DNA of 64,000 nucleotides from Planctomycetota bacterium. Its GTDB lineage: Bacteria > Planctomycetota > Phycisphaerae > UBA1845. A program made the position numbers and the translations under genes. The notes under the pieces were generated by a model that was not told where the DNA came from, made no database searches, and saw only the letters and a list, made by a program, of their open reading frames with translations. Location of the stretch: positions 3,291 to 67,290 of the forward strand of contig BOJX01000003.1 of assembly GCA_016860685.1 (NCBI GenBank), written 5' to 3'. Of this stretch, positions 1 to 16,764 are shown one piece after another. Within the stretch, counting starts at the first letter, position 1. Each line of letters starts with the position of its first letter.

Positions 1-101
1 GCGAGTTCATCGGCTTGAAATGGAATTGTCGGCATGGCTGCACCAGTTCCCGGCCATTGCCAAAAGCGTATTCGCTGACCGTCGGTTGCGAAACTGCTCG
101 T

Positions 102-160
102 GGGGGGTAGAGGGTGAGGCTTGGAGCGGGAGAGGGGCCGCGTCTCCCGCTCCATCAACG
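102..160 (+). repeat. 59-bp direct repeat, copy 1, containing a 12-bp hairpin
   Basis: GGGGGGTAGAGGGTGAGGCTTGGAGCGGGAGAGGGGCCGCGTCTCCCGCTCCATCAACG is identical to 16659-16717. Stem TGGAGCGGGAGA (122-133) pairs with TCTCCCGCTCCA (143-154). Confidence 0.95.
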
Positions 161-176
161 CGGTTCGATGGAACGA

Positions 177-926
177 TTAGCCATTGCAATCTGACCGGAT
201 GTTGGCCGCATAGGCCAGCACGTCGATGCAGGGCACGGTCGCGATCGTCTGCAACGACGCGATGAACCGGAGAAGGAACAGAGCCAGTGAACAAGCGGAT
301 TGTTCGGCAGCGATTGCCGGAGGTTCGTTTGTCGAGTATTTGACACTGAAGACGCCGTGGCGCACGGCGCAGCCCATGTCGAGCCGACCATCGGCGGGGA
401 CCACCGCGAGCGCCTTCCGGAAAGCGTCGCCAAGAGGCGGACTCCAATCGCTTTCCAAGGTCACCAGCCCGCCCAGGATGTAGTGCGGCGGCTTGGCGGG
501 GTACTCGCCGCCAGCGTGCTTGATCGGGAGGCTGGTGCGGTGCAAACGGCGCACACTCGCGATCTTGTCGGCCGCATACTCGATGTGGCCGGCGTTCAAG
601 TTCTGCTTGACTTCAAGGACCGCATAGACGCTCTCGGCTGGGACGTACAGCGCGCCCCCGAGATTGAGCACGAACGGCGAGTATTGGCGGTCGTGGATCA
701 CGATGTCCTGTTGTTGGCTGGCACCGTCCTTGGAGTCGATAACGAAGGCCCTGTTTACCCGGTAGCGCTCGGGAAGGTGCTTGCGGAGCATCTCGATCCA
801 TCTGTCCTCGGTCACCGTCCCCTTGGTTCCGGAGTGGTCGATGGTTTCGCGGGCGATGCCAAGTTCACTCTCCAACTGGCGGTGCAGCCCGCCGAAGAGT
901 TGGTTCAGATTCGGTGTGTCCGTCAT
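177..926 (-). CDS. nucC: CBASS effector endonuclease NucC
   Basis: 249 aa from ATG 926. HSGTKG..E..W motif and QQDIVIHDRQYSPF...VPAESVYAVLEVKQ restriction-endonuclease-fold motif. Last gene of the CD-NTase-HORMA-ATPase operon. Confidence 0.93.
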   Translation of the reverse strand: MTDTPNLNQLFGGLHRQLESELGIARETIDHSGTKGTVTEDRWIEMLRKHLPERYRVNRAFVIDSKDGASQQQDIVIHDRQYSPFVLNLGGALYVPAESVYAVLEVKQNLNAGHIEYAADKIASVRRLHRTSLPIKHAGGEYPAKPPHYILGGLVTLESDWSPPLGDAFRKALAVVPADGRLDMGCAVRHGVFSVKYSTNEPPAIAAEQSACSLALFLLRFIASLQTIATVPCIDVLAYAANIRSDCNG

Positions 927-939
927 CGGAGTCTCCCGG

Positions 940-1872
940 TTACGAAGCGTGGCCATTGCCGCGGAATGGCGGCGTCGGCCTGATGGCACGTACAAGTTCG
1001 ACGGCGCGTGCGCCGGTGACGGGGCGCTCGGGAAAAGCGTCAAGCACGATGGTCGGGATGAGCCGCTGGGTCAGGTCGGAGTACGTGAATCCGCAGGATT
1101 GCTCGGCCGTTTCGCCCGTGGCGTCGGCCAGAGCATCTATGTCGCGGTCAGCGACAGCGGTACCCTGAAGGCCAGCACGCAACACGGCGATGCGTTGCTG
1201 GCGGTTCGGTCGGTGAAACTCAAAGACGGCGGCCGCGCGCCGGCGGACGGCCGGGTCGATGGCGTCCAGCCGGTTCGTACACATGACGATGGCAATCGGT
1301 AGCCGCTCCGCGGCGGTCTCGTCCACGCCGCGGATGAGCGCGTTCACCCCTGCGCGGTCCTCGTGGTGCATCTGCGCGGCTTCGCGCGATTGTGCGAGCG
1401 CATCCGCCTCGTCGATCAGCAGGATGATGCCGCGGCCGGATCGTCCGTGGGCGTCGCGCGATTTGGCGACGGCGTCGCGGACCTGCCGGAACGCACCGGA
1501 GATTAGCCGGGTCATTTCGCCGACCGCCCCGTTCCCTCGGGCGTTCAGACTCAGCGCGTAGAGGTGAACCTGAACCTTCGCGCGCTTGGCTACCTCGTTG
1601 CCGAACGAACGGGCCAGTGCCGTCTTTCCGGTGCCCACGTCACCGGCAAGGACGAAAAGTGACGGTCGGGCCGCAAAGTAGTCGAGGGCGGCGAGTTGGC
1701 CCTTGTGGTGCTTGCGGCTCCAATCGCTGAGCAGAGCGGGATCCACCAGCAACAGCGTCTCTTTGACCAATCGATCCTTGTAGTCGTCGAGTCCGACAAG
1801 CCGGTCGTAGTCGGTCTGCGCTTTGGGATCAGGAAAGTGAATGACCTGCTCGAAGAGATCAGCCGGATTCAT
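940..1872 (-). CDS. cap6: CBASS TRIP13/Pch2-like AAA+ ATPase (Cap6)
   Basis: Walker A GDVGTGKT, Walker B LLIDEAD, TNR sensor and DPAVRRR arginine finger. Overlaps the HORMA stop codon. Confidence 0.92.
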   Translation of the reverse strand: MNPADLFEQVIHFPDPKAQTDYDRLVGLDDYKDRLVKETLLLVDPALLSDWSRKHHKGQLAALDYFAARPSLFVLAGDVGTGKTALARSFGNEVAKRAKVQVHLYALSLNARGNGAVGEMTRLISGAFRQVRDAVAKSRDAHGRSGRGIILLIDEADALAQSREAAQMHHEDRAGVNALIRGVDETAAERLPIAIVMCTNRLDAIDPAVRRRAAAVFEFHRPNRQQRIAVLRAGLQGTAVADRDIDALADATGETAEQSCGFTYSDLTQRLIPTIVLDAFPERPVTGARAVELVRAIRPTPPFRGNGHAS

Positions 1873-2378
1873 ACGCCGCCCCCAATCGTGGCGCGCCGCA
1901 ATCCGCAGCCAACGGCGCTATAGGTCTTGTCCAGCGACCACGATCCGTTGCGGATGACCGGCTCGACACCGGACGAGCGCGCGAACGGCAAGTCGCGCTC
2001 GATGGATTTACGCTGGCCGGGCGTAAGCAAGTCCCACTTGCTGCTGTAGGAGAGAAAGGAATACCAAGTCGCGCCGGTGATGTCAGCGCCCCTGGGGATT
2101 CGCCCCGAGCGGTCGTCGGCCGTGAGATTGCCGTACATGTCGGCGGTGTACTTGAGCGCGGCGACCCATACACCGTCACGCCGAAAGCCGTAACTGACTT
2201 CCTTGACGTAGGCGCCGGCCAGAAGCTCGGTGAGTTCCTGGAGGTAGTTCTCGATGTCTGTGTCAGAGGGCCTGCCATACGCCTGCTGCATCTGTCGGAG
2301 GTCGGCAGCGACCTTGCCCGCGGCATACCGCGCGTGCGTGCGGGACCATGTTTCTGTTGTCGTGTACGTCTGTGTCAT
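1869..2378 (-). CDS. cap7: CBASS bacterial HORMA-domain protein (Cap7)
   Basis: 169 aa with the T-rich N-terminus TYTTTETWSRTHARY..KVAADL typical of bacterial HORMA1. Lies between the CD-NTase and the ATPase. Confidence 0.9.
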   Translation of the reverse strand: MTQTYTTTETWSRTHARYAAGKVAADLRQMQQAYGRPSDTDIENYLQELTELLAGAYVKEVSYGFRRDGVWVAALKYTADMYGNLTADDRSGRIPRGADITGATWYSFLSYSSKWDLLTPGQRKSIERDLPFARSSGVEPVIRNGSWSLDKTYSAVGCGLRRATIGGGV

Positions 2379-2381
2379 GAA

Positions 2382-3359
2382 TCATCCCCTGAACGAAGTG
2401 CCGAGCACCACCTGCCACATCTGCACGGCGTGCCCTTTGGTGGCCGCCGTGTGAGCTTCGTTCAGGGCGTCAAGCGCGTCCTGCGCGGCAGTCACGATCA
2501 GCCGGCGATGGTTCTCTGTGTACTGCGAAGCCACGTTGTTTTTCGGATTGACTGGATCGAAAATCTGCACGGGGTCCGGAAGCGTCGCCGGCAACTCGCT
2601 GGCCGGGTAGTGATCCTTGAAGGCAATGCGGGTTTTGAGTCCCGTATTGACGACGTAGTTGAAAAACGCCTCCATCGCCACGCGGTAGTCGGCCATGCCT
2701 TGACCCGTGTCGGCAAGATGAGCGCAAATCAGCTCCACCATGAACGACTTGAGGCGGAAGTTGGCGTCGGCACCTTTTTGCTCCGCAGCCCACCACTTGA
2801 CTAGGCGGACGACCTGAGCGAAGTGTTGCGGCTGGGCGTCCTTGCGCTTGCGAGTGAACGCGAGGTGCATCGGGATGCTGGTCAGCATCAGGCGGCCGGA
2901 TTTCTTGGACACGAGCCAGCCCTTGTCCTGCGGATCGCCCTCGTAGAACACCGGAACGATGTCCACGTCGATGCCCGCTTCCTTGTATTTGATTTTGACC
3001 GAGTATTCCTGCGGCTCGATCTGCTCAGGCTTCATCTGGGGGTACGCCTTCCGCAGTCGTTCCGCGATCCAGTCGGCGAGCTTTCGATCGGCCTTCTTCT
3101 CGCCGTCGTAGTTGATGTAGAGCGCGACATCGACATCGCTCGATGTCTTCAGCGCGGTACCCTTTGCCAGGCTGCCGGAGAGATACGACTTGGCGATGCC
3201 GCAGTCAGGATGGTCCTTCATCCATTTTGCGAGACGCTCGCGGAGGTCGTTCACCTTCTGGCGGCGTTCCTTCGCGATGTCCGCCGGCAGGTTGACGCGA
3301 TCCTCGGCAAACTGGCGGATGTCGGAGTGGGCGATTGGCGGTGCAATGGTCATGGTCAT
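2382..3359 (-). CDS. cdnC: CBASS cyclic oligonucleotide synthase (CD-NTase, CdnC-like)
   Basis: SGSLAKGTALKTSSDVDVA nucleotidyltransferase motif, third Asp in DVDIVPV, C-terminal DPVNPKNNVA. Start set at MTMTIAPP (325 aa). Confidence 0.92.
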   Translation of the reverse strand: MTMTIAPPIAHSDIRQFAEDRVNLPADIAKERRQKVNDLRERLAKWMKDHPDCGIAKSYLSGSLAKGTALKTSSDVDVALYINYDGEKKADRKLADWIAERLRKAYPQMKPEQIEPQEYSVKIKYKEAGIDVDIVPVFYEGDPQDKGWLVSKKSGRLMLTSIPMHLAFTRKRKDAQPQHFAQVVRLVKWWAAEQKGADANFRLKSFMVELICAHLADTGQGMADYRVAMEAFFNYVVNTGLKTRIAFKDHYPASELPATLPDPVQIFDPVNPKNNVASQYTENHRRLIVTAAQDALDALNEAHTAATKGHAVQMWQVVLGTSFRG

Positions 3360-3466
3360 TTTCGCTCGCTTCCTGTTCTCGGTCCTGCACAGTCCGCAGC
3401 CACCTATTGTGGCCCGCGAACTCGTTGCCCCTACCCCTGGGCCTCCGGGCAGGCTCGGCACAGAAC

Positions 3467-3508
3467 AGGATAGCCACGCTTGACGTAGATGTCAAGTAGT
3501 GCTAAAGT
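3467..3508. promoter_or_regulatory. Back-to-back sigma70-type promoters sharing a palindrome
   Basis: Minus strand: TTGACA (3495-3490), 17 nt, TATCCT (3472-3467), towards CBASS. Plus strand: TTGACG (3480-3485), 17 nt, TAAAGT (3503-3508). The two -35 boxes form CTTGAC-GTAGAT-GTCAAG (3479-3496). Confidence 0.75.
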
Positions 3509-3532
3509 GTCAAGGTGACGAGGACGACAACC

Positions 3533-4108
3533 ATGCCAGTGATCCCCCCATTCACGGACGACGGGCTCCTGCCGCGGGGCGATTTTGAGGTCACGTTCGA
3601 GGAGCTGCGTCAATCGGTCCTGGTCCTCGGACCTGGCGATCCGAGCGACTTTCCGACCTGGGACGCCGGATGGCGTGCGAGGCTCGTGGACAACCTGGAA
3701 GTCCTGACGCGGCAGCTCTGGCGGGTGGGAATCACGGAGGTCTTCGCCGACGGCTCGTTCGCGGAGGACAAGGACCATCCGAACGACATCGACGGCTATT
3801 TCGTCTGCGATTTGAATCGGTTGCGGACCGGTCAACTGGAACGGGAGTTGAACCTGCTGGACCCCGACAAGGTGTGGACGTGGGACCCGGCGTCGCGCCG
3901 GCCGTACCGCGGGTATCCGAAGCGGCAGCTTCCGATGTGGCACAGGTACCGTGTGGAGCTTTACCCGCATGTGCCGGGTCTCGGAATCGGCACTGGTATC
4001 CGCGACAAACACGGAAACGAACTGGAGTTCCCCTCGGCGTTCCGCCAATCGCGACGCGACGGCACTCCGAGGGGCATCGTGAAACTGCGTGATGGAGGTC
4101 AACCATGA
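3533..4108 (+). CDS. DUF6932-like predicted nucleotidyltransferase (toxin-like or regulatory)
   Basis: IPPF...GLLP.G N-terminus, DGSF...K.HPNDIDG Pol-beta-type NTase motif, C-terminal RDGTPRGIV. Confidence 0.75.
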   Translation: MPVIPPFTDDGLLPRGDFEVTFEELRQSVLVLGPGDPSDFPTWDAGWRARLVDNLEVLTRQLWRVGITEVFADGSFAEDKDHPNDIDGYFVCDLNRLRTGQLERELNLLDPDKVWTWDPASRRPYRGYPKRQLPMWHRYRVELYPHVPGLGIGTGIRDKHGNELEFPSAFRQSRRDGTPRGIVKLRDGGQP

Positions 4109-4551
4109 TTCGTAACGAGACAGAGTACCAAGAGGCCATGACTCGTCTCGCGGAAGAGCGAAACCGACTTACCGAGCATCGGGCGCGTCTGAAGCAAACG
4201 GGCCTCACGGATGAGGAAATCAAGCGGGTCATCGATCCGATGGAGTCGTTTCACCTGCAACTCAAGGAGGAAGTCGAGAGCTACGAGCGGCTCAAGCGGC
4301 GAGAGTTCGATGAACTCGACAACTTTCGCGGATTCGGGCACCTGCTGATCTCGCTTCGCATCGCGCAGGGCATGTCGCAGCGCGAACTCGCGAAGCGCCT
4401 CGACGTTCACGAATCGCAGGTGTCGCGTGATGAGCGCAACGAGTACTTCGGCATCACGCTCGAACGGGCGGTGAAAGTTCTCGACGCGCTCAACGTCAGG
4501 CTACGCACTACAGTCGAGCTTGACGCACCGCGTGAAATGGTCCCTGCATAA
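4105..4551 (+). CDS. XRE-family HTH regulator / antitoxin-like protein
   Basis: MIRNETEYQEA HigA-like N-terminus and coiled coil, then the HTH LRIAQGMSQRELAKRLDVHESQVSRDE. ATGA overlap with the upstream gene. Confidence 0.85.
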   Translation: MIRNETEYQEAMTRLAEERNRLTEHRARLKQTGLTDEEIKRVIDPMESFHLQLKEEVESYERLKRREFDELDNFRGFGHLLISLRIAQGMSQRELAKRLDVHESQVSRDERNEYFGITLERAVKVLDALNVRLRTTVELDAPREMVPA

Positions 4552-4592
4552 TCAACCATCGGGCGACGTGCCCAACCAGAAAGGAAGTCGTT

Positions 4593-5191: not shown

Positions 5192-5195
5192 GGCG

Positions 5196-8100
5196 TCATT
5201 GCTCCTCGAACCCGAACTCGGTGAACTTCAAGGTCCGGCAGTTTTCGGTCACGTCGCGGACGGTCTTGTCCGACGCACCCTCGGGCAGGCCGGCGCTGAT
5301 TTCGAGGGTGATCTCCACGTCGGCTCCCACAACGCCGGTCAGGTGTTGCACGATCTCTTCGGCAATGCGTGCGGCGTCCCTCCCCAAGCGGAGCGGGTCC
5401 ACCTTCACCGAGCCGTGGAAACGGCGCAATGCTGGAGCGGTCGGCGCTGCTGCGGCCGTCCCACCCGATGTCGGAGTGGCCGTCCCGCCAGAGCCGTTCG
5501 TTCCCGCAGCGGTAGCGCTCGGGGAGCCTCCTGGCGTCGGTGCGGCTCCCGTGCCGGCGCCGGCGGCTTGACGGTCGGCCGCAAGCTGTGCGGCGGCGGC
5601 GTCCGGTTTCACCAACACAGTCCGGTCGTCCGCGATTACGCGGATCGTCGTCGCGGCACGAAGGCCCTGATAGCGCTTGCGTTGTTCGTCCCATCCCTCT
5701 GCATACGCAAACGTCTCGCTCTGCCACATGAGCGTGGCGACGCCCTCCTGGATGGCGGCGAACAGGACGTTTTCGTCGCGGAGCCGCGGGAGATACAGGT
5801 AGCGGGCCATGTATTCGGCAAGCTGTTTGATGCCGACGTGATTACCGGTCCAAAGCGGCACGCGGTCAAGTTCCGTCCGCAGCCGAACGGCCCCCATCTG
5901 CACCAAGAGCGATTCTTCGTTCTTGAGTTTCTTCGCCGCACGGCCAGCGAGACTCTCCTGACCTTGCAGCTTCAACTCTGTCCAGGTCGCCTCGCCCTTC
6001 GGATCGGATTGGCTCGGAACCAGAAGCCATTGAAACGCCTCGGAGATTCGCAAATCGACGGCCTCGGCGGCGCTCTTGCGCTTGGTCTCGGCTTGGCGAG
6101 TCTGGAACTGGTCCAGATTCAGCGGCACGCGCTCGTCCCAGATAGAGGTCCACGCAAGGTACTGCCGAACGGACTGCTCAAGCTCGCGCAGGCGGTTGAT
6201 GTCGCCGGCGAGAAAAACGAGCGTGTTCTTGAAGTTGCGAGGCGCTGTTCCGCGCGATTCCAGGATCGCCGCAGCTTCCTTCCGGGCGGCGCTGACGCCG
6301 TTCTTGTTCGTGTGCGGGAACTCCGGCCCAAGGATCACGAGCCGCGCCTCGCGTTCATCGGGAACGTCGCTGCTCGGGACGCAGGCATGGACTTTCGAGA
6401 AGTCGGCGCGCGTGCGGGCCTCCTCCCGCAACCGCTTGATGATCTCGTCGCCGATCTGGTCGTCGGTGAGTTGGCCGGCTCGATCGTCGGCCAGTCGCGT
6501 AACCGTCGGCTGTGTCGAGTACCAGTACCGCTTGCCGTCTACATAGAGGTATGTGGCGCTGTCGGTCAGTCGCCGCAGAGCGTCGCCAAAAGTGGCGACG
6601 GACTCGCCCGGCTGGGCGCAGCCGAGCTTGACCTGGCGCTCGTCGATTCCGCGGTGCGATGCTCGCATCGTGGGCGCGGACCCCATGTAGATGGTGCGCG
6701 CAACACGGCGCGACGCGGAATACCGGCCTAGATTCGGGTTGGCGCGGTCCAGGGCCAGCGGGAGCGAGTTCGCCCCGTCCACGTCCTTCTCGATCACGGG
6801 AACCCATTGATCTTCGAGGTAACGGGTGAGTTCAAACTGCACGATCTGGTCATCGACGGGCACGTTGCCCGGCATGATGAGCAGATTGCCGTCCTGGCGT
6901 TCCCACAGAGAATGGATTACCGCTGCCATGAGGCGCAGCACGCCGCGCGTGCGCTGGAACTTGTCGAGCGTGGACCAGTCGTTGTAGAGTCGGTCGAACA
7001 TTTCGGGGTGAATCGGGTACGCCATCTTGATGCGGCGTTCGTAGTCGGCCTCGCGGCACTCGGTCGGAAACTCCTGTTGTTGCGTGCCGTACCAATCGAC
7101 GAATGCGCGCGCCACGGCGTCGCGGGCTACGAACTGGTCGCCCGAAAGCGGCTGGAACAGCCGCCGGCGGACGATCTCGAATCCCTCGTCCGGGCTTGCC
7201 GGCCGCCACGATGCCTCAACGCGGCCGACGGCGTTTTTGAGGCGGGCCAGTGCCTCACGGCCGCGTTCGCCGCCGACTTCGATATCGGTGACGCCGCGGT
7301 CGGCCCGCTGATGCGGGCTTTCCGACGCCGGGATGCTCACGACCAGCAAGGTGTGCTTCGCGGCTTTGGCCGCTTCGCTGAGGGCCTGGGCGAAGGTGAA
7401 CTGCGTGTCGAACGTGCCCGCGGGAAGGTCGGCCGTGCCGTGAAGTTGCCGTGCGTAAGCGACCCATTCGTCGATCAGGATCAGGCACGGGCCGTACTTG
7501 TTGAACAACTCCGTCATCGTGGCGCCGGGATTCGTCGCCCGCTCGTCATCCTCCTTGACGAGCTTGTACCCCTCCTTGCCGCCGAGTTGCCAAGCGATCT
7601 CTCCCCAGACGGTGCGGATCGTCGTGCCGTCGGGTTTCTTGTGCGGCTTGCCTGGCGAAATCTGCGTGCCGACGAAGACGGTTCGGTGGACATTTTTCGG
7701 CAGCGGGATGCCGACGGCCTTGACCAGCTCCTCGGCGCCGGGCAGGTCGGCCGGCGACGCGCCGGAGAAAAGGTGATACAGCGCGAGCATGGAGTGCGTC
7801 TTGCCGCCGCCGAAGTTCGTCTGAAGCTCCACGACCGGATCGCCGCCCTTGCCCGACAATCGCAGCACGGCTTGCGACAGCAGTCGGCGCAGGCCCTCGG
7901 TGATGAACGTCCGGCGGAAGAACTCGGTCGGGTGCTTGTATTCGTCGGAGCCTTCGCCCTGGTACACCTGCCACAAGTCGGCTGCGAACTCGGCCTGCTG
8001 ATACCTGCCGCTCGCCACGTCGGGGTGCGGGGTGACGACCTCGCGCCACGGCTTCAACCCGCCCTGCGGCTTGCCCTCAGTCGGCTGGGCCGATCGCTTG

Positions 8101-8555
8101 CGCATCTCCGAGCGACGCTGCTCGTCGAACATCGTGCGCATCAGGTCCATCCGCATCTGGCCTACTTCGCCGGCGGAGTCGGCGGCGGACACGGCGTTCA
8201 ACAGGCGCTCCATCGAATCCAGCGCCCGGATGGCGTCGTTGCTGGTGAACTGTTCGTTGTGCGCCCACTGGTTACGGATGGTGCGAAGTTCGCTGACGAT
8301 GCTGCGCTCGGCCGGTCCGAGCACGTCGCGGAACACGGCATTCCACTGGTCCCAGAGGACGCCGAGCAACGTGGCCGGATCGTCCAGGTTGATCGGCTGA
8401 GGTTTGCCGCGTGGTCCCCGGTTGGATGGATCGGGCAAGGCGTTCTGCCAGTTGTCGCCAAGGTGGGATTTCAGTTCGCGCTCGACGAACGGCCGCAGGC
8501 CCGCGGAGAGCAGGTCCAGTCCCTTGCCGACACGTTCTCGATTGCTTACTGCCAT
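5196..8555 (-). CDS. DUF499 AAA+ ATPase with N-terminal Swt1-like HEPN domain
   Basis: HEPN RxxxxH motif (RNQWAH), LKPWREVVTPHPDV, Walker A TNFGGGKTHS, Walker B LILIDE, FQRTRGVLRLMA. Confidence 0.9.
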   Translation of the reverse strand: MAVSNRERVGKGLDLLSAGLRPFVERELKSHLGDNWQNALPDPSNRGPRGKPQPINLDDPATLLGVLWDQWNAVFRDVLGPAERSIVSELRTIRNQWAHNEQFTSNDAIRALDSMERLLNAVSAADSAGEVGQMRMDLMRTMFDEQRRSEMRKRSAQPTEGKPQGGLKPWREVVTPHPDVASGRYQQAEFAADLWQVYQGEGSDEYKHPTEFFRRTFITEGLRRLLSQAVLRLSGKGGDPVVELQTNFGGGKTHSMLALYHLFSGASPADLPGAEELVKAVGIPLPKNVHRTVFVGTQISPGKPHKKPDGTTIRTVWGEIAWQLGGKEGYKLVKEDDERATNPGATMTELFNKYGPCLILIDEWVAYARQLHGTADLPAGTFDTQFTFAQALSEAAKAAKHTLLVVSIPASESPHQRADRGVTDIEVGGERGREALARLKNAVGRVEASWRPASPDEGFEIVRRRLFQPLSGDQFVARDAVARAFVDWYGTQQQEFPTECREADYERRIKMAYPIHPEMFDRLYNDWSTLDKFQRTRGVLRLMAAVIHSLWERQDGNLLIMPGNVPVDDQIVQFELTRYLEDQWVPVIEKDVDGANSLPLALDRANPNLGRYSASRRVARTIYMGSAPTMRASHRGIDERQVKLGCAQPGESVATFGDALRRLTDSATYLYVDGKRYWYSTQPTVTRLADDRAGQLTDDQIGDEIIKRLREEARTRADFSKVHACVPSSDVPDEREARLVILGPEFPHTNKNGVSAARKEAAAILESRGTAPRNFKNTLVFLAGDINRLRELEQSVRQYLAWTSIWDERVPLNLDQFQTRQAETKRKSAAEAVDLRISEAFQWLLVPSQSDPKGEATWTELKLQGQESLAGRAAKKLKNEESLLVQMGAVRLRTELDRVPLWTGNHVGIKQLAEYMARYLYLPRLRDENVLFAAIQEGVATLMWQSETFAYAEGWDEQRKRYQGLRAATTIRVIADDRTVLVKPDAAAAQLAADRQAAGAGTGAAPTPGGSPSATAAGTNGSGGTATPTSGGTAAAAPTAPALRRFHGSVKVDPLRLGRDAARIAEEIVQHLTGVVGADVEITLEISAGLPEGASDKTVRDVTENCRTLKFTEFGFEEQ

Positions 8556-8571
8556 AGGTCAGGTTCCATCG

Positions 8572-11508
8572 TCAGAAGAGTTCTCGTTGAGATTCAGGTT
8601 GCCGGACCCGGCTCGAAAGGGCAAGCTTCGAGAGTTCCGGCCACGCGATCACGAGGCCGTTGTAGGCCCGCTCCTCGTCGGGCCACTTCTTGCGGCTGGA
8701 TATCGAGTGCAGGCGATAAGCCAGTTCGCGAGCGATCTCGCCCATGCCTCCCAGGCTTGCCAGCAATCGAGCAGCTTCGGCCTCGCCTTTGTTCTCCAGC
8801 GTGCGGATCAAATGTTGGGTCGTCTCCCATGCCGTGAGACGGTTGTCCGTCGATGGACTCCAGTCGTCAGACAGTTCGGCCCTGGTCACGAGCCGGACCT
8901 TGCCGCCGCGCGCCTTTACGATGCCCGCTTCGACCAATCCGTTCACGGCGGTGTTCTTGGCCTTGCTCAACGTTTCGGCGACGCCGAAGGAATCCTCGTT
9001 CGTGCCGTACTGCTCGAACCACGCGAGCGCCCAGCGCGTGTCGGGATCGAAATCGCCTTCCTGTTCGGCGAGTACCTCGTCAAGCACCTGATTGATGATG
9101 CCGAGCGCCGTTCGCACGGTCATGGGAGTGCCGTCGGACTCGATGACTCTCGCGTAGCGCGTGAACACCGCCATGCCCGGCCCGATGACCGCCTGGGCAA
9201 GGTCCACGGGCGCAACGTTGCCGTGTTGCAGCGCCTTGAGAGCGCTCGGCAGTTCACTCCTGAGCGCAGTGAGAAAGTCCCGCCGAGTCGTCATGGCCGC
9301 AGTGCTTGAGCGCAGCCGACACACCAGTACGATGGACGACGCGAGCGAGTTCCGGCCGTGCTCGCGAAGTCCGCCGGGCTGTTCGGTTCGCATCGGCCAT
9401 GTGCCGGTCACGGTCCATCCGGAGTCCACGATGCCCTGGAGGATGGTGTCCCAGCCGCTTGACGTTCGGGCTTCCTCGTCGTCCTCTTCCTGTTTGAATG
9501 CGTAGTAGACGGTGACGGGTATTTCGCGGTTTGCGCTCTTGCTGATGCCGGTGAAAACTGCTCGCAATCCGTCCTCGAAGAACTGCTTCGCCTGGTCGGC
9601 GCTTTCGTGCCGGGCCGGCTCCGCGATGAGTTCCATCTGTTTGGGCGTCAGCAGAGTCGAATACAACTGCGGAAACAGTCCGGAGAGCGCGCGGCGATGC
9701 CACACGTAGAAGAAGTCCGACAGGTCGGCATAGGGGACGTTGTCGTAGTATGGCGGATCGGTCGATACGACCGGAGCATCGTTGGTCCAGGGCACCCGCG
9801 CGTCCCGTTGTTCGACGACTCCCGGTGCCGCGGCCGGTACGGCGGCAAGCGCGTGGTACAGATACTCGAATTGTCCGTCCACGTTGCCGGATGAGTCGGA
9901 AAACGGATTCGCTTCCGCGTAGACCCAAATCATCGGCAACGCATTGCGCGCAAATACCTGTTCGACAGTCTCGCGGTTGGGGTTGTAGAAGGACTGCGAC
10001 GCGTGTCGATTGGCGACGCGCCCGATGCCAAGAGCAAGATACACGGCGATCGCTCGCGCGTAGTCGTCGTCTGCACTGTCGCGTTTCGCTAGATCAAACG
10101 CACCCTGCGACGCCTGACAGAGGGTGTCGAGAAGCAGCAACTGGCGGTCGGTGAATAGATCCCGGTGACGACGGATGCCGTAGTTCTGTACCCTGAATCC
10201 GAGCGCCTTCTCCGGCAATGCGGAGTTCAAGAGGTCGGGACTCGTGCTCGGCACTCGTGGAAGATCGATCGCTCCCCCGGGCAGATAGACGCGCTCGCGG
10301 TCTCCGGCGGCGACGACGGTCATCAACTGACGGCCGAGCTTTCCCTTTTGTCCTGCGTCGCGGATGTCGTCGAGCGCGATCGGGGAACCGCACGACGGGC
10401 AGGTAGCGCCGCGCCGCCCGATCGTGGAAAACTTCGGATCGGCCTTTTCTGCGACTACGGACCATTCGGCCGCGGACGCGGCACCACGCGCCCTCTCCCA
10501 TCTGAGCGAGTACCAGCGTCGCGGTCGTTTGCAGAGTCCGGGATCGCTGACCAAGGGGACGGATTGACCACACGCGGGGTTGGTGCATGGCGTCGTGCGA
10601 GCCCAAATCCACGCGATGACGGTCAGTTCCCTACCTATGTACTTGGCGAGGTCCGCGCGGCCTCTGGCCATTGCCGCAGTGACCCTCGTCTTCGGATAGA
10701 GTTGCCCCATCCGCTTCTCGGCCTCGTCACGCATCCATTTGCCGTAGTAGCGCACGTCTTCGGCCAATCCCTCGGCACCATGCCATTGGCTCGTGGAGCG
10801 GGCCTGCTCATTCTTCTCGGGCGGATGCACGGGCGGACGGCCGGAGAACTTGGGCGGAATCTCGATCAGCGCCTTCGTAATGAGCACTGGCACTGGGTTC
10901 AAGTCGGACGCGTAGGCGCGGAGGCCGAGCCGCTGGGCTTCGAGCGGAATCGAACCGCCGCCGCAGAACGGGTCAAGGATCGGCGGCGCATGTTCGGCGA
11001 GAAACGCGTTGACGATCTCCGGCTTGGCCTTCGTCGTCAGCACGTCCCAGGCGGTGACGCCTTCGCCGGAGACGGCCCCCTTCGGGTGCTTCTGGCCTTT
11101 CCTGCCGCCGAAGATAATTGCTTCTTTGGCAAGTTCGCCGAGTTCGATCTTGCGGGAAGCGACGCAGCGGGCGATCTCGGCGCGCGCGGCGTTGATGACG
11201 CGCGGGTTGGTCGAGTTCTCCCACTGGACAAGTTCTTCGATCAGGTTGAAGAGCTCGGCTCGCTTGATGCCGGCGCGCTCCTCGTCAACAGTGCCGTCTG
11301 CCCGACGATAGACGGGATCGCTGTCGGGATCATCGACCAGCGAAGCGAACAGGACGGCCCGACACGCGGCAAGAGGCCGCCGCGCCCACCACAGGTGAAG
11401 CGTGCTCGGATGTCCGTGTCGGATGGACTTCTCCCTCGCGCTGGCCTCGTTGATGGCCTTGAGCGGCAGAGCGACTTCGATCAGCTTCTTGCGGTGCGGT
11501 ATGGTCAC
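8572..11508 (-). CDS. DUF1156-domain adenine-specific DNA methyltransferase
   Basis: KKLIEVALPL, LHLWWARRPL, SAM-binding DPFCGGGSIP, catalytic DPPYY and a zinc ribbon. GTG start at 11508 overlaps the upstream stop (GTGA). Confidence 0.92.
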   Translation of the reverse strand: MTIPHRKKLIEVALPLKAINEASAREKSIRHGHPSTLHLWWARRPLAACRAVLFASLVDDPDSDPVYRRADGTVDEERAGIKRAELFNLIEELVQWENSTNPRVINAARAEIARCVASRKIELGELAKEAIIFGGRKGQKHPKGAVSGEGVTAWDVLTTKAKPEIVNAFLAEHAPPILDPFCGGGSIPLEAQRLGLRAYASDLNPVPVLITKALIEIPPKFSGRPPVHPPEKNEQARSTSQWHGAEGLAEDVRYYGKWMRDEAEKRMGQLYPKTRVTAAMARGRADLAKYIGRELTVIAWIWARTTPCTNPACGQSVPLVSDPGLCKRPRRWYSLRWERARGAASAAEWSVVAEKADPKFSTIGRRGATCPSCGSPIALDDIRDAGQKGKLGRQLMTVVAAGDRERVYLPGGAIDLPRVPSTSPDLLNSALPEKALGFRVQNYGIRRHRDLFTDRQLLLLDTLCQASQGAFDLAKRDSADDDYARAIAVYLALGIGRVANRHASQSFYNPNRETVEQVFARNALPMIWVYAEANPFSDSSGNVDGQFEYLYHALAAVPAAAPGVVEQRDARVPWTNDAPVVSTDPPYYDNVPYADLSDFFYVWHRRALSGLFPQLYSTLLTPKQMELIAEPARHESADQAKQFFEDGLRAVFTGISKSANREIPVTVYYAFKQEEDDEEARTSSGWDTILQGIVDSGWTVTGTWPMRTEQPGGLREHGRNSLASSIVLVCRLRSSTAAMTTRRDFLTALRSELPSALKALQHGNVAPVDLAQAVIGPGMAVFTRYARVIESDGTPMTVRTALGIINQVLDEVLAEQEGDFDPDTRWALAWFEQYGTNEDSFGVAETLSKAKNTAVNGLVEAGIVKARGGKVRLVTRAELSDDWSPSTDNRLTAWETTQHLIRTLENKGEAEAARLLASLGGMGEIARELAYRLHSISSRKKWPDEERAYNGLVIAWPELSKLALSSRVRQPESQRELF

Positions 11509-12785
11509 AGGGTGAACTCCCTGAACTCGGTCTCGCGGATGTTGTCTGCTGTGACCGTGCCGCACATGCTGCCGTCCGGCATCACGCTTCCATCGAACTG
11601 CGCTGTCTCGACTTCAAACAATGGCTCTATCGCAAATAACGGAGCTTCTTCCGGGGTTGTCAGCGCACGCGAAATCGCCTCGATCACGTCCACGCGCAAT
11701 CCGACGATTGTCATTTCCAAAGCGTCCCGACCGGGGCCGAAGAAGAACCACTCCGGCCAGTGCGGCCAGTGGTGGCGGAAGTCGCGCATGAAGCGCCGCT
11801 GATACCGAGGATTTAGACCTGCTCCCGTGACGACGTAGGCGTAATCGCGGGGGCCGACTCGTTTTATCGGCAGAGAAAGCGTGACTCCGTCCCGGATAGC
11901 GCCTGTGCGGAGGGCGGCAGCGGCTTCGGGAAATCCCATGCCGAGCAACCATGCCGCATAGTTTCCGCGGCGAATCCAGTCGCGGGGGAACTCAACAGTG
12001 AGATCGCCATCCTCGCGGCCTTCCGGGTCCACGAAGGCAATCAAGGACGTGTCCTCATGCGGATCATCGACTTCGCGCAGGTACGTCCCGACCGCAAAGG
12101 TCTTGGACGGTTGCGGCGAAATCAATGGTTTGGTCGCCGCGAGCTGCTTCAGTGCATCGCTCAGGTCGGCCTTGATGGTGCTGCTCGTGCCGGGCGAGAG
12201 AAGGCTGCCCTTGGCCTCCGCGAGCGCAGTCTCGGACTTCGCGTTCTCGATGACGAAGTCCGATCGCTTGTCGAGTTTTCGCTTGGCCAGCTTGTTTCGG
12301 ATGGCTTGGGCGCGCTTCACGCTCTCCGGGTGTTGCACTATCTGATTTCGTAGTGCGCGCTTCACAAGCACGTCAAACCGATCCCAGAACGCATAGCCCT
12401 GGGCCTGCATCGCCAGCAGCAGCATTCCTTCCCCAATGAGCCGAGAGCGGCTGCTGTGTGCCGCAGTTTCGTAGTGGTCGGTTGTGCCCGCAGCGAGTCG
12501 GAGTTCCCCGCCGTTCCAGCGAAACATGGCGTGATGCTCAGCGGCAAAGCAGGCCGCGAGGTGATCGACGTGGGCGCCGTCGAAACTGCGAGTCAACTCG
12601 GCCTTCTTCGCAGCCTGATACAGGCTCCAAGCGGAGACCCGCAGTTGCCGTTTCGCGGCTGGTAAAGGGCGGACACGGCCGTATCTGGTACGGATGACCC
12701 TACGGTCCAACTCGATTACAGGGAGCGTGGCCTGACCCGCCGGAGCGACCGAAAGCGTGAAGGGGGTGAGTGATGGGAGAATCAT
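11505..12785 (-). CDS. Hypothetical protein with a PD-(D/E)xK-like nuclease motif
   Basis: 426 aa, translationally coupled on both sides. RSDFVIENAKSETALAEAKGS resembles a restriction-endonuclease active site. Confidence 0.65.
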   Translation of the reverse strand: MILPSLTPFTLSVAPAGQATLPVIELDRRVIRTRYGRVRPLPAAKRQLRVSAWSLYQAAKKAELTRSFDGAHVDHLAACFAAEHHAMFRWNGGELRLAAGTTDHYETAAHSSRSRLIGEGMLLLAMQAQGYAFWDRFDVLVKRALRNQIVQHPESVKRAQAIRNKLAKRKLDKRSDFVIENAKSETALAEAKGSLLSPGTSSTIKADLSDALKQLAATKPLISPQPSKTFAVGTYLREVDDPHEDTSLIAFVDPEGREDGDLTVEFPRDWIRRGNYAAWLLGMGFPEAAAALRTGAIRDGVTLSLPIKRVGPRDYAYVVTGAGLNPRYQRRFMRDFRHHWPHWPEWFFFGPGRDALEMTIVGLRVDVIEAISRALTTPEEAPLFAIEPLFEVETAQFDGSVMPDGSMCGTVTADNIRETEFREFTL

Positions 12786-15700
12786 GCCGGCTCCTGGGCC
12801 TGGGCCAAGAGCGCCGACAGGTCGTAGTTGACGCTGGTCGCCTTGAAGTCGGGTTCCTTCTCAAAGGGCTTGCGGACGTACCGCACGTCCGCCCGATCCT
12901 GGTCGATGACGGCGATGGCGAGAATGAACTCGTCCGGTTTGTTCAAGGCGGTCAGGATTTCGTTCTTGGTGATGGTGACGGTCCTGGCCCCTCTCACGCG
13001 GCCTTTGACCTCGATGAAGCGAAGCAGGCCCGTGTTCGGGATGGCGGACTCGATGTCGTAGCCGAGATTCTGCTCGCTCACGTCCCGCGGGACGAAGCCG
13101 AGCCGGCGCTCGGTCTGCGCCACGGCGTCCATCGCCAATCGTTCGGAACGCTCGGTGTCAATCGCAAAGTCCGGCGGCGCCGCGGCAGACGCGGCTCCCA
13201 GCTTCCGAAGCAGCCCAACAGGCAGGATCATCGCGCCGCCGAGCACGACCGGCGGAAGCGCGGCGAGCTTGCGTTCCTGCTCGATCTCGGTAAGGCGCTT
13301 CTGCAATCGGGCCGTGAGTTCATCCGCTCGCTGCCGGGCAAGGCCGGAGTTGAGCTTGGCGTTGACCTTGCCGGCGAGTTCCTGGTCCTTGAGTTGGGCC
13401 GCGCGGTGGTCCCAGTAGTTGATCTCTTTGGTGAGCCGGTCCTGGACCGCGGCTTTCGTCTTGTCGAGCAGCTCCTCCTTGCGGCGGCGGAGTTCATCAA
13501 GGTGCTGCGGAACTATGTGGATCGCGGCGTGTTCCATCGCCCGCGTTTCGAGGTCTCCGCGAACCCAATCGGGCAGTTTCACTTGCTCCAGCGCCCTCGC
13601 CTCTTCCTCGGTCGCGGGCCGGTAGTCGAGATACGGGGCGGGACCGGCGTTCTCGGCGTGTCCGTCGGCGTCGATTTCGACGAACTGCAATCGCTTGGAG
13701 ACGACGCGGCGGTTGCCGGCGCGGTCGGTGCGGGCATCCTGAATGGCGTGCTCCAGGTAGAGCAACGTCCGCGGGTGTTCTCCGTCGTCCGTGTCGTCGA
13801 TCAGGATGGCGCCGCGTTTGAGCAAGTCGCGGTGCCGCTCGATCACAAGGTCGAGCGTCGCGTCCAACAGCGGATGGCCGGGACACACGAACGCGGCCAG
13901 CGGCTTGCCGGGAACGCTGATGAGGCCCTTCTCGAACGCTATGCGCTCGTAGCGAGAGAGCACGGCGTCGCCGCGGCCGATCTCGCGGTCGCGGTTGCGG
14001 ATGACGGCGGGCACGTGCTTGATTTCGTAACGGTTCGCCTCGCGCTCGTGGATCGTCCCGCCGAGCAGCTTGAACGCTTCGAGGAAGAATGCGGCGATGA
14101 AGTGCGGTTGCAGGCGGCGGGCTTCGGCCCGTTCCATATCCTCGCGAATCTGGCGGACCTTCGACACGTCCATCGCGTCGTGGGTGAGCGCTCGGACTTC
14201 GACCAGCTCGCGAAGGTGCTCCCGGTCGAGGGCCTTGTCCACGACCTGAAACAGCCTTGCCCGGACCTCGGGCTGGTCGCCGTAGCGGATGGCTTCGAGC
14301 AGCAGTTGGCGAAGCGGCTTGTCCTCGAAGGTCACTTGCCCGAGCACGTCGAAGACCTGGCCGCCGAGTGCGTTTCGCTCCTCGTCCAGTTTTTCGAGAA
14401 GTCGGTAGTAGACCTCGCCCTCACGGGTGTCCTTGGCGACAAGGTTCCACAGGTGGCACACTTCGGTCTGCCCGATGCGGTGGATGCGGCCGAATCGCTG
14501 CTCCAAGCGGTTCGGGTTCCACGGCAGGTCGTAGTTGACCATCAAGTGCGCCCGCTGGAGGTTGATGCCCTCGCCCGCGGCGTCGGTGGCCACGAGGATT
14601 TCGACTTCCTTGTCCTGGGTGAACGCCTCCTGCGCGTTACGCCGGTCCTCGCGGCCGACGCCGCCGTGAATGATGACGACGGCCTCGGGCTTGCCGATGA
14701 GCGCCCCGATCCGCTCGGCAAGATAGTTCAACGTGTCGCGATGCTCGGTGAAGATGACGAGCTTGCGCCGGTGGCCGTATGCGTCGAACATCTCGGAGTT
14801 GTTCTGCAACAGCCGTGAGAGTTCGTCCCACTTGCGGTCGGTGCCCGATTGGCGGACGCGGAGCGCCGTCCGCTCCAAGTCCTGCAACTGGGCGATTTCG
14901 GCTCGGAGTTCCGCGATGGTGCGGGCGGCGGACGCCTGATCGACGACGTGCTCCTCGGTGTCCTCGATCTCCTTGTCGGGAGCGTCGTCAAGGTCGTCGA
15001 TGTCGTCGGCCGTCAACGCAGGCAAGCCGGCGGTCATGTCGATGCCGACTTCTGCGCCACGCTTGAGCAACTGCTCCTCGCGGAGCCGCTTTTCCAGGCG
15101 TTCGCGACGGCGGCGCAGCGATTGGTAAATGGCTTCCGGGGATGACGCCAGTCGGCGTTGCAGGATGGTCAGGGCGAATCCGACCGTTCCCTTGCGGCCC
15201 TCGTTTTCCAGCGCCTCGGCGCGGTTGAACTCTTCGCGGACGTAGTCGGTGACCTGCTTGTACAGGTCCGCCTCGGCGTCGGAAAGCGCATAGTTGACCG
15301 TGTAGGCGCGGCGCTCGGGAAAGAGCGGCGTGCCGTCGAACTTGAGCAACTGCTCCTTGACCAAGCGGCGCATCATGTCCGTCGCGTCGGTGACGTGAAC
15401 GCCGTCGCGGAATTTGCCCTCAAAGCGGTCGCCGTCGAGGAGCGCCATGAAAAGTTGGAAGTCCGCCTCCTTGCCGTTGTGCGGCGTGGCGGTCAGCAAC
15501 AGGAAGTGGCGCGTCAACGTCGAAAGCGATTGTCCGAGCCTGTAGCGTTTCGTGTATTTGACTTCGTTGCCGAAGTACGTGGCGCTGAGCTTGTGCGCCT
15601 CGTCGCAGACGATCAGATCCCAGTCGGTCTGATTGAGCTTCGCCTGGGTGTCTTCGTCGCGGCTCAGTTTGTCCAGCCGGCAGATTGCCAGCGGCGTCTC

Positions 15701-16291
15701 GCTGAACCAGTTGCCGGTGCGCGCGGATTCGAGCGCGTCGTTCGTCATGATGTCGAAAGGCAGGTGGAACCGACGGTCGAGTTCGTCCTGCCATTGCTCG
15801 ACAAGGTTGCCGGGGCAGACGATGAGGCAGCGTTGCAGGTCGCCGCGTGCGATCAGTTCCTTGATGAACAGTCCGGTCATGATCGTCTTGCCGGCGCCGG
15901 GGTCGTCGGCCAGCAGGAACCGGAGCGGCTGCCGGGAGAGCATCTCGCTGTAGACCCCCGTAATCTGGTGCGGGAGCGGCTCCACAAGCGACGTATGAAC
16001 GGCCAGCAACGGGTCGAAGAGGTATGCGAGCCGGATGCGGTTCGCCTCGGACAGAAGCCGGAACAGGGCGGCATCGCCGTCGAAGCTCCACGGGCGTCCG
16101 GCTTCGACGATCTCCAGCGTCGGTTCACGGTCGCGGTAGAGCAATTCGTTGCCGAGTTTGCCGGCGGCGTCTTTGTACGTGACCTCGATTGCGACGCTGC
16201 CGATCCAGCGCACGTCGCTGATGGTGACGAGCGAGTCCGGGAGGATGCCTCGCACGGCCGTTCCGCGTGTGATGGTTTCGAGGGTCGCCAT
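12782..16291 (-). CDS. SNF2-family helicase with C-terminal DUF3883/NOV-C nuclease-like domain
   Basis: LLADDPGAGKT, DEAH, TATPH, TDAAGEGINLQ, EQRFGRIHRIGQ, and C-terminal GYDIES...FIEVKGR. Confidence 0.93.
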   Translation of the reverse strand: MATLETITRGTAVRGILPDSLVTISDVRWIGSVAIEVTYKDAAGKLGNELLYRDREPTLEIVEAGRPWSFDGDAALFRLLSEANRIRLAYLFDPLLAVHTSLVEPLPHQITGVYSEMLSRQPLRFLLADDPGAGKTIMTGLFIKELIARGDLQRCLIVCPGNLVEQWQDELDRRFHLPFDIMTNDALESARTGNWFSETPLAICRLDKLSRDEDTQAKLNQTDWDLIVCDEAHKLSATYFGNEVKYTKRYRLGQSLSTLTRHFLLLTATPHNGKEADFQLFMALLDGDRFEGKFRDGVHVTDATDMMRRLVKEQLLKFDGTPLFPERRAYTVNYALSDAEADLYKQVTDYVREEFNRAEALENEGRKGTVGFALTILQRRLASSPEAIYQSLRRRRERLEKRLREEQLLKRGAEVGIDMTAGLPALTADDIDDLDDAPDKEIEDTEEHVVDQASAARTIAELRAEIAQLQDLERTALRVRQSGTDRKWDELSRLLQNNSEMFDAYGHRRKLVIFTEHRDTLNYLAERIGALIGKPEAVVIIHGGVGREDRRNAQEAFTQDKEVEILVATDAAGEGINLQRAHLMVNYDLPWNPNRLEQRFGRIHRIGQTEVCHLWNLVAKDTREGEVYYRLLEKLDEERNALGGQVFDVLGQVTFEDKPLRQLLLEAIRYGDQPEVRARLFQVVDKALDREHLRELVEVRALTHDAMDVSKVRQIREDMERAEARRLQPHFIAAFFLEAFKLLGGTIHEREANRYEIKHVPAVIRNRDREIGRGDAVLSRYERIAFEKGLISVPGKPLAAFVCPGHPLLDATLDLVIERHRDLLKRGAILIDDTDDGEHPRTLLYLEHAIQDARTDRAGNRRVVSKRLQFVEIDADGHAENAGPAPYLDYRPATEEEARALEQVKLPDWVRGDLETRAMEHAAIHIVPQHLDELRRRKEELLDKTKAAVQDRLTKEINYWDHRAAQLKDQELAGKVNAKLNSGLARQRADELTARLQKRLTEIEQERKLAALPPVVLGGAMILPVGLLRKLGAASAAAPPDFAIDTERSERLAMDAVAQTERRLGFVPRDVSEQNLGYDIESAIPNTGLLRFIEVKGRVRGARTVTITKNEILTALNKPDEFILAIAVIDQDRADVRYVRKPFEKEPDFKATSVNYDLSALLAQAQEPA

Positions 16292-16295
16292 CGGA

Positions 16296-16577
16296 TCAGC
16301 GGCCCTCCCTGGAAGTCGATTTCTCGGTCGGACTGCGGGTACGTCGTCCTCGGCGGTTGTTCCCGCCGGATTCGAGGACGTATCGCCAGCCGTCGTCGCG
16401 CCGCTCGGCTCTGATATCGTGCCCGCGCTGCCGTAAGGCCGTCACGTCGCGCGACACGGTCGGGATGGATACCCCAAGTTTTTCGGCGATTCTCGGCGTG
16501 GAGTAGGTTCCCTTGCGGATCATGCCGAGCACGGTCTCCAGTCTTCGCTCGATGTCGAGGGATCGTTGGTAAAGCAT
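16296..16577 (-). CDS. Winged-HTH (HTH_11-type) transcriptional regulator
   Basis: IAEKLGVSIPTVSRDVTALRQRG. First gene of the DUF499 operon, with a GGAGG RBS. Confidence 0.8.
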   Translation of the reverse strand: MLYQRSLDIERRLETVLGMIRKGTYSTPRIAEKLGVSIPTVSRDVTALRQRGHDIRAERRDDGWRYVLESGGNNRRGRRTRSPTEKSTSREGR

Positions 16578-16604
16578 CCGCGGGGCCTCCTGACCGCCGC
16601 TACC

Positions 16605-16633
16605 TGTCTATCGGAGCATGATAGACATGTCAA
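16605..16633 (-). promoter_or_regulatory. Operator palindrome and -35 box of the DUF499 operon
   Basis: TGTCTATC-GGAGCAT-GATAGACA (16605-16627) lies immediately downstream of a minus-strand TTGACA (16633-16628). Confidence 0.6.
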
Positions 16634-16658
16634 CCCGTGCCTGCGTACCCTGCTCGGA

Positions 16659-16717
16659 GGGGGGTAGAGGGTGAGGCTTGGAGCGGGAGAGGGGCCGCGT
16701 CTCCCGCTCCATCAACG
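16659..16717 (+). repeat. 59-bp direct repeat, copy 2
   Basis: Identical to 102-160. The upstream CTGCTCG is also shared. Confidence 0.95.
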
Positions 16718-16764
16718 TGGTCGGCTTGCGCCGGACTCGCCGCGTTCAACTTCGGACGCGGTGC

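Follow-up and report, generated by a model that had tools for sequence, protein, structure and literature searches.

A conserved hairpin repeat that probably marks cargo joints in a tRNA-Pro-inserting mobilizable element family of Planctomycetota, and its candidate role as a relaxase site

The closest described counterparts of the repeat reported here are the recombination sites of integrons and of Acinetobacter plasmids, and the origins of transfer (oriT) of MOB_F systems. Core sites of integron attC read RYYYAAC ... GTTRRRY, and pdif is an 11-6-11 Xer site with alternating orientation. The nic region of plasmid R388 comprises a hairpin and 9 nt of single strand, of which the proximal arm and the tail are essential and the distal arm, the loop and the outer flank tolerate change (PMC4176350, accessible part). 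TrwC, the R388 relaxase, can recombine one oriT copy with another and insert incoming DNA at an oriT already present (PMC3264647, accessible part), and the available portion of a recent preprint on integrative elements reports multiple oriTs, with some elements carrying two, and defence and anti-defence genes clustered near oriT (bioRxiv 10.64898/2026.01.13.699239). In 21 planctomycete chromosomes, 29 MOB_F relaxases were surveyed, often accompanied by a coupling protein and never by a full mating-pair system (bioRxiv 10.1101/2024.01.22.576637); the portion of that text available to us makes no mention of oriT. In this work a stretch of 64,000 nt from a Planctomycetota bacterium (the window; contig C3, BOJX01000003.1, 3291-67290, from a 3.9-Mb assembly of 437 contigs with 65.5% G+C, labelled G000) was analysed, in which a block of defence genes is flanked by two direct copies of a hairpin-forming repeat. 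On balance, the repeat is probably a backbone cis-element of a family of ~58-kb integrative mobilizable elements (IMEs) that insert at tRNA-Pro genes, marking the joints of differing cargo and serving as a candidate relaxase site.

Positions 102-160 and 16659-16717 of the window are identical over 59 nt, and the match extends to 63 nt at 98% identity (102-164 against 16659-16721). The copies were named A (outside the window), B and C (Table 1). The 31-nt palindromic core has exactly two exact occurrences in the window, and two or more matches were obtained in 0/100 dinucleotide-preserving shuffles. Its hairpin, with a 12-bp stem and a 9-nt loop, is predicted as a single-stranded DNA fold for both strands (z about -2.6). 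Copy B lies 13-17 nt from the stop codon of nucC (177), and the Hma (DUF499) operon begins with a gene that starts 75 nt downstream of copy C. The identical pair with its stem and loop, and its placement after nucC and before the DUF499 operon, had been given in a preliminary description of this DNA, whose coordinates, positions and fold were all reproduced; its supposition of an array running on beyond the left edge proved right, because a third direct copy (A) lies left of the window. BLAST of the whole 3.9-Mb assembly returned no copies beyond A, B and C, and all three lie on one contig within 17.6 kb.

Alignment of 22 copies, read on the gene strand (the minus strand of the window), places the 59-mer at the core of what appears to be a conserved cis-element of ~60-72 nt. 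The tail-adjacent arm and the 29-nt C-rich tail are near-invariant, the tail ends at a sharp common boundary and the 9-nt loop is almost invariant; the commonest variant sits in the other, tail-distal arm, and the 11-nt lead is wholly replaced in L041, L039 and G065-2. Copies are 92-100% identical across Phycisphaerae and Planctomycetia, compared with 69% for nucC (G000 and G013) and 61-75% for the relaxase, and genes nearby diverge by 15-35%. In its level of conservation the repeat equals the best-conserved non-coding block of the backbone. Because the repeat is conserved like that block, and beyond its flanking genes, a sequence-specific cis function rather than that of a mere hairpin is suggested. 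A coding origin was considered, as a reading frame starting with ATG crosses the repeat and four of seven variable sites fall at third positions, and was ruled out by an in-frame stop in G004, frame shifts in G065-1 and in the copy-C type, and unequal spacer lengths. A tRNA or tmRNA origin was rejected with ARAGORN, which returned none in eight loci around copies, and crossover placement by four-gamete reasoning on four variable sites was uninformative, all combinations being present.

Eight of the 61 relatives searched (G000 counted) match the repeat, five of them strongly. When a single genome from each of 185,579 species was scanned for exact 47-mer matches, 11 stretches were returned, all in Planctomycetota records except for two metagenome-assembled genomes labelled Cyanobacteria and Nitrospira; nine stretches were found in a metagenome scan and one in IMG/VR. 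The plasmid collection gave no repeat match, Rfam gave only sub-threshold microRNA noise for the repeat and its neighbours, and a 15-nt core stretch was not found in the roughly 8.4 million papers and preprints searched. Direct-oriented arrays occur at six loci, with three copies each in G000 and G061a and two each in G061b, G063, G065 and the 'Nitrospira' contig. In the complete related genome G061, 6/6 copies fall in three regions, each of which has a relaxase 73-75% identical to that of the window, on the same strand and 15-25 kb from the repeat. The orientation of the repeat relative to the relaxase is the same in all six elements whose contigs span both (G000, three in G061, G063 and G064). 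No relaxase was found in the repeat-bearing G058 and G013; in G058 the repeat stands between a Fic gene and a recombinase gene. G002 and G051, tried as examples of a relaxase without the repeat, are no counter-examples because their contigs end too close to the relaxase to judge (24 kb and 11 kb), and G001, whose relaxase contig ends 4 kb away, is likewise uninformative on absence.

In its shortness, hairpin form and sharp 3' boundary the repeat could in principle pass for a dispersed selfish repeat of the repetitive extragenic palindromic (REP) or miniature inverted-repeat transposable element (MITE) kind, unrelated to the element. The chance of this is close to negligible and the reading is largely refuted by the distribution of copies, of which there are three in G000 and six of six in G061, all inside elements; the genome-wide REP that the preliminary description had named as a refutation is thereby set aside. 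Exact-core matches are as few as counted above, target duplications were not observed, and the scanned open reading frames (ORFs) contained no HUH transposase.

Three of the outlying records are described here in their own right. L016/L034 (RHKP01000011.1), a 209-kb contig labelled Cyanobacteria, holds a complete sister element, whose relaxase is 73% and whose recombinase is 90% identical, and L018 (CAZXRB010000112.1), a 9.9-kb contig labelled Nitrospira, holds a two-copy array; these occurrences reflect either mis-binning or cross-phylum transfer. L058 (IMG/VR UViG 3300021969_000066) is a 30.7-kb viral-classed contig with the repeat, the structured element described below, recombinase remnants and an Hma system, and is more likely a fragment of such a mobile element than a phage.

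Gene content and termini indicate that the repeats belong to an IME of ~58 kb, the left, cargo end of which is filled by the repeat array. The predicted gene set of the family comprises a large serine recombinase, a MOB_F relaxase of the TrwC type, a coupling protein, ParA/ParB and ArdC; the repeat stands at the cargo end, between ardC and the left terminus, in an orientation fixed relative to the relaxase gene. The N-terminal domain of the window's relaxase aligns with R388 TrwC, HxH motif included, at E 5e-31, and ParA, ParB and a RepL-like protein are also encoded in the window. The ORF of the large serine recombinase overlaps the 3' end of tRNA-Pro by ~20 nt, and homology with four sister elements stops at window position 55559, the 5' end of tRNA-Pro(GGG). 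Sister elements (recombinase 88-90% identical; L045, L046 and L047 examined) are found at tRNA-Pro genes of the anticodon types GGG, TGG and CGG, with a tRNA fragment of ~12 nt repeated at their far end. The left end was placed at about C3:993, abutting a tandem neighbour, because the last 65 nt of the right end recur at C3:928-992 with 94% identity. They do so behind a truncated second large serine recombinase gene left of the window (L001:124-993 on C3), of which only the C-terminal part is present, 39% identical to the element's own, and which reads as the remnant, at the start of the contig, of a tandem neighbour element. The element resembles the planctomycete MOB_F elements of the survey cited above, as far as the available text describes them: it combines a relaxase with a coupling protein, and none of the scanned ORFs encodes an ATPase of VirB4 size.

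The repeat was considered, and rejected, as the attachment site of the large serine recombinase. In G013, G061a and G065 the left attachment junction, formed by the element terminus and a tRNA fragment of 12 nt, is found ~240 nt further out than the outermost repeat, and the repeat is therefore not that enzyme's site; the window element's own junctions, at 55559 and C3:993, share no sequence with the repeat.

Cargo was compared around 21 copies using crude gene calls based on ORF length and third-position G+C, with recurrent families named by Pfam. DNA adjacent to repeats encodes P-type ATPases, CusA/CusB-type efflux proteins, AbiEii, PLD nuclease, Fic/DOC, NucC with its cyclic-oligonucleotide-based anti-phage signalling system (CBASS), Hma and orphan genes, and ArdC adjoins repeats on the backbone side. 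The same upstream gene end is joined via the repeat to different downstream DNA in the cases of NucC (G000 against G013), AbiEii (G001 against the 'Nitrospira' contig) and the ATPase (G062 against G061a and G065); a Fic promoter is likewise joined via the repeat to differing DNA, and the converse, the same downstream with different upstream DNA, was also seen. L041 shares 95% identity with G000 over the stretch that runs from copy A up to the attachment junction, and is unrelated to it upstream from the hairpin edge. Downstream partners are of few types, namely a structured element of ~65 nt (13 distinct versions), a DUF6789 gene (five loci), and a promoter-operator with a winged-helix gene, found at G000-C and G061b-1 with the first six codons the same.

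The preliminary description had taken the 16.56-kb block between copies B and C for a single exchangeable defence cassette. Exchange is borne out to the extent that cargo differs sharply at the repeats between related loci; the repeat is not defence-specific, and the same element bounds czc and P-type ATPase metal resistance, Fic and orphan genes. Nor does the block hold together as one unit. The CBASS operon has its own sigma-70-like promoter (3495-3467), and the block is therefore predicted to hold at least three transcription units; in L058 an HmaC protein 93% identical to that of the window is followed within 3 kb by a repeat with no CBASS between, and in G013 CBASS ends the element. Because the repeat is a part of the element backbone that marks joints of cargo of every kind, the 16.56-kb 'cassette' is composite cargo (Hma, DUF6932/XRE and CBASS) between two copies and is not autonomous. 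The statement that no transposase or recombinase lies inside was confirmed for the 14 ORFs of the block that were scanned, none of which contained such a domain; three strand-transfer enzymes, the relaxase, the resolvase and the large serine recombinase, are encoded just outside it.

Flanking direct repeats, a third copy that makes an array, arrays with other cargo elsewhere and homology that breaks at the repeat would all suit a self-contained 16.56-kb cassette moved, as in integrons, by site-specific recombination at the flanking repeats. The likeness to integron attC and Acinetobacter plasmid pdif lies in same-orientation arrays of a hairpin-forming site between cargo units, in the frequent position of that site directly after the last ORF, and in cargo that includes defence and resistance genes. 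It ends at the site itself: neither RYYYAAC nor GTTRRRY stands at the repeat ends in the 22 copies on both strands. One end reads GTTGATG on the gene strand, which is the wrong end for a core site, and the other is without GTT or AAC. In the predicted fold only the central perfect 12-bp stem pairs and the flanks remain unpaired, so that the long bulged hairpin of attC is not formed. Units between repeats measure 1-16 kb and contain several operons on both strands, unlike integron cassettes, and the repeat is no 11-6-11 Xer site and never alternates in orientation, unlike pdif. No integrase lies in or beside the array, and no IntI or tyrosine recombinase domain was found in 64 Pfam queries (the window and L001, with some overlapping frames), small ORFs being outside that scan. 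The 9-nt spacer is odd-numbered and long for the core of a serine or tyrosine recombinase, the large serine recombinase of the element uses the tRNA-Pro junction, and the block is divisible, as L058 indicates. Movement of the block as such a cassette is thus very unlikely, and the read evidence below also speaks against it.

Reads were checked through Logan contigs of four runs from four studies on C3:1500-21499; rare forms are not visible in such contigs. Each repeat is a point at which contigs end (L048 pieces 1-890, 891-1914 and 1922 onward), and depth is equal across the pieces in all four runs, for example 58.6, 57.2 and 60.8 in run X2. No joint linking two copies, no circle and no empty site was present in these contigs, rare events being beyond their reach, and the excised circle or empty site for which the preliminary description had proposed a search was thus not seen within that limit. 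Because depths are equal and no copy-copy joint was found, the arrangement is stable in the bulk population. As a separate observation, 93-98% of sampled words of the stretch 12000-21000 were present in 20 public runs from 10 studies (bioreactor, sludge, sediment and biofilm); either the element or its host strain is common across engineered systems.

Arrays had been attributed in the preliminary description to recombination at the repeat; in part they arose by tandem accretion at the tRNA-Pro site instead. Internal copies G065-1 and G061a-2 are each followed by the structured element and then by ~100 nt from the extremity of a former left end, and these old termini show tandem accretion followed by decay, by which the arrays of G065 and G061a were built in part. 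In this process each element inserting at the tRNA-Pro attachment site brings one repeat ~240 nt from its left end, and recombination between copies, whether homologous or enzyme-made, may then remove inner backbone or swap modules; such recombination is the proposed origin of the six other internal copies. The likeness to accretion of integrative conjugative elements and IMEs lies in these old left termini after internal copies and in the abutment of the G000 left end on the 3' end of the truncated second recombinase gene. The difference is that six internal copies are without an attachment remnant and that the repeat is itself no attachment site.

The structured element that lies between the outermost repeat and the left end is conserved over ~65 nt (L010:10015-10077, L011:9823-9887, L012:10083-10148 and 10 more), and a remnant lies outside the window at C3:1477-1540. 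It is predicted to form a three-helix junction, with compensatory changes in 3/17 pairs and an invariant T-G wobble that favours the gene strand, and it contains an invariant 9-nt core that includes GATAGAC. No Rfam match was obtained. It could be a single-strand initiation or promoter element, a part of an oriT, or a 3' untranslated region RNA.

Position relative to genes bears on a further explanation. The repeat follows a co-oriented stop codon by 0-16 nt in 11/21 copies and by 77-323 nt in 5/21, and these placements, together with the strong hairpin, would be expected of a terminator, insulator or RNA 3'-end element that halts or stabilises the transcripts of cargo genes and is carried passively, playing no part in transfer or recombination, its arrays arising from accretion and deletion only; accretion remnants do account for two internal copies. 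The C-rich, G-poor tail would suit a Rho-loading tract. This explanation is unlikely, but it is the main rival of the role proposed below. The repeat has no T-run on either strand, because of which a terminator scan passed over it and listed instead that of ardC 150 nt away, and ardC, which lies upstream of copy C, accordingly has a canonical terminator of its own. The remaining 5/21 copies stand after an opposite-strand gene or between divergent genes, the orientation relative to the relaxase is kept in G061a even though the neighbouring czc module is inverted, and between classes the loop and the tail keep 92-100% identity, well beyond the needs of a terminator.

The palindromic sequence would also suit a binding site for a small resolvase (res-like), for ParB (as centromere or operator) or for a winged helix-turn-helix (wHTH) regulator; genes for a resolvase, ParA/ParB and HTH proteins are present in the element. 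ParB proteins of the KorB type have operator palindromes at dispersed sites. Binding of this kind is nevertheless highly improbable as the function of the repeat, as conservation is asymmetric and runs 29 nt past the palindrome, direct res sites would be resolved, the repeat is not adjacent to the resolvase or parB genes, and in G058 it stands beside a recombinase and Fic with no relaxase found in the genome.

A relaxase (oriT-type) recognition hairpin is the role ranked first for the repeat, as a tentative proposal that is still less likely than not, because a hairpin with a conserved single-strand tail fits such a site and TrwC-type relaxases join two such sites; a MOB_F relaxase is encoded in the same element. 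The anatomy would fit that of the MOB_F oriTs of R388 TrwC and F TraI, in that an inverted repeat is followed by a conserved stretch that may hold the nick, and the distal arm and the lead are variable while the tail-side arm and the tail are fixed, as in the accessible part of the R388 map (PMC4176350). ArdC and defence genes adjoin the repeat, as reported near oriT in the available portion of the preprint (bioRxiv 10.64898/2026.01.13.699239), and relaxase-mediated integration into a resident oriT, in the form given in the accessible text of PMC3264647, would create direct repeats. The repeat differs from these sites in the length of its stem (12 bp rather than 5 bp), in its loop, which has 9 nt and is conserved where theirs has 4 nt and is free, in its conserved tail of 29 nt, and in the presence of up to three copies per element. 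A bolder form, in which the elements are relaxase-driven capture platforms and a TrwC-type relaxase stitches single-copy circular or incoming single-stranded modules into the resident copy, is distinctly unlikely. If true, the platform would constitute an integron-like library of defence and metal-resistance modules at an origin of transfer, and its modules, flanked by origins, would each be transferable or lost independently.

Several observations weigh against the backbone-element and relaxase-site interpretation. By-eye comparison of the repeat with the quoted nic regions of R388 and F gave no convincing match, the distance of 15-25 kb from the relaxase gene is large, and a conserved hairpin block at 32290-32560, 2 kb from that gene, is an equally conventional place for an oriT. 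The loop is conserved as well, which a relaxase does not require. Clues to the strand conflict, conservation pointing to minus and ardC as a leading-region gene pointing to plus. An active relaxase should resolve direct oriT copies, yet depth is even in the four metagenomes, and the copies that closely follow a co-oriented stop have a terminator- or integron-like 3' position. Covariation of the hairpin was not significant, its score being reached by 97/500 shuffles, and the stem is not confirmable by this means because too few positions vary. The 6/8 internal copies other than G065-1 and G061a-2 are without an accretion remnant, and modules also differ where no repeat lies, as in the presence or absence of CBASS beside Hma (L058).

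The block at 32290-32560 is the best-conserved non-coding block of the backbone, with 85-88% identity over ~570 nt in five sister elements; it contains a near-invariant stretch of ~150 nt and, immediately 5' of a conserved minus-strand gene for 67 aa (32281-32078), a 7-bp hairpin. The block may be a competing oriT or may have a regulatory function. Two further features of the element were noted. At 42859-43618 the arms of a perfect 27-bp inverted repeat, 706 nt apart, flank part of an IS1595-type transposase (43119-43601), in what looks like a decayed insertion sequence within the element, and a 247-nt direct repeat at 48631-49160, in two copies that are 82% identical and 283 nt apart, lies before and within the start of a parB-like gene (48914-49741) and may be a centromere or iteron region.

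Coordinates of the features are collected in Table 1. Genes between 177 and 16577 are mostly on the minus strand. The CBASS genes have SMODS, bacHORMA_1 and AAA domains, and the NucC model matched at E 2e-94. The Hma system was predicted with PADLOC (1740 bits for HmaA, 1061 for HmaB and 1114 for HmaC); in HmaC (5196-8555) a Swt1-like HEPN domain at the N terminus is fused to the ATPase of DUF499 type, and a 426-aa gene without assignment sits between HmaA and HmaB. Along the minus strand, two small unknown ORFs lie between HmaC and the DUF6932/XRE pair. The palindrome at 16598-16645 is likely the operator of the wHTH gene, and the arrangement of TTGACA and palindrome also follows the repeat in G061b. 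A single 231-aa orphan gene lies between copies B and A, and beyond copy A a DUF6789-like gene and the structured element precede the element terminus.

Table 1. Features of the window and of the adjoining part of contig C3 (window positions unless prefixed C3)
Feature	Position	Strand	Details
Repeat copy A	C3:2362-2432	direct	70/71 identical; 1,022 bp left of copy B, outside the window
Repeat copy B	93-164	-	11-nt variable lead, 12-9-12 palindrome and 29-nt C-rich tail (read on the minus, or gene, strand)
Repeat copy C	16650-16721	-	tail variant with one extra base; between ArdC terminator and Hma promoter
TrwC/TraI-type (MOB_F) relaxase-helicase	34552-37194	+	PF08751 TrwC, E 3e-70
Small serine recombinase	45606-46202	+	resolvase and HTH_7
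TraG/TraD-type coupling protein	49868-51370	+	
Large serine recombinase, intact	54009-55502	+	ORF runs into tRNA
tRNA-Pro(GGG)	55483-55559	-	right end of element
Type III CBASS operon	177-3461	-	CD-NTase 3461-2382, HORMA 2378-1869, Trip13-like AAA 1872-940, NucC 1043-177
DUF6932 and XRE-type HTH pair	3515-4108, 4105-4551	+	strand opposite to CBASS and Hma
Hma operon	5196-16577	-	wHTH 16577-16296 (93 aa), HmaA SNF2 helicase 16291-12782, unknown 426-aa gene 12785-11505
Hma operon, rest		-	HmaB DUF1156 methylase 11565-8572; HmaC HEPN_Swt1 and DUF499 ATPase 8555-5196
Promoter-like TTGACA, then palindrome	16598-16645	-	7-N7-7, half-site GATAGAC
ardC intrinsic terminator	16867-16894	-	canonical, 12-bp stem and T-run; 150 nt before copy C
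ArdC anti-restriction gene	16904-17980	-	backbone gene adjoining the cargo array, right of copy C

The repeat is a previously undescribed, sharply conserved cis-element with no Rfam match, and it delimits a family of mobilizable elements that integrate at tRNA-Pro genes of Planctomycetota, a phylum in which, to our knowledge, conjugation has not been shown. It can be used as a search handle for cargo hotspots that swap Hma, CBASS, AbiE, PLD nuclease and metal-efflux operons. Were it only a terminator, the finding would reduce to an ordinary cargo region of a mobile element; should the relaxase site prove true, it would be the first candidate oriT for planctomycete elements, and the arrays would be natural cargo arrays made by a relaxase.

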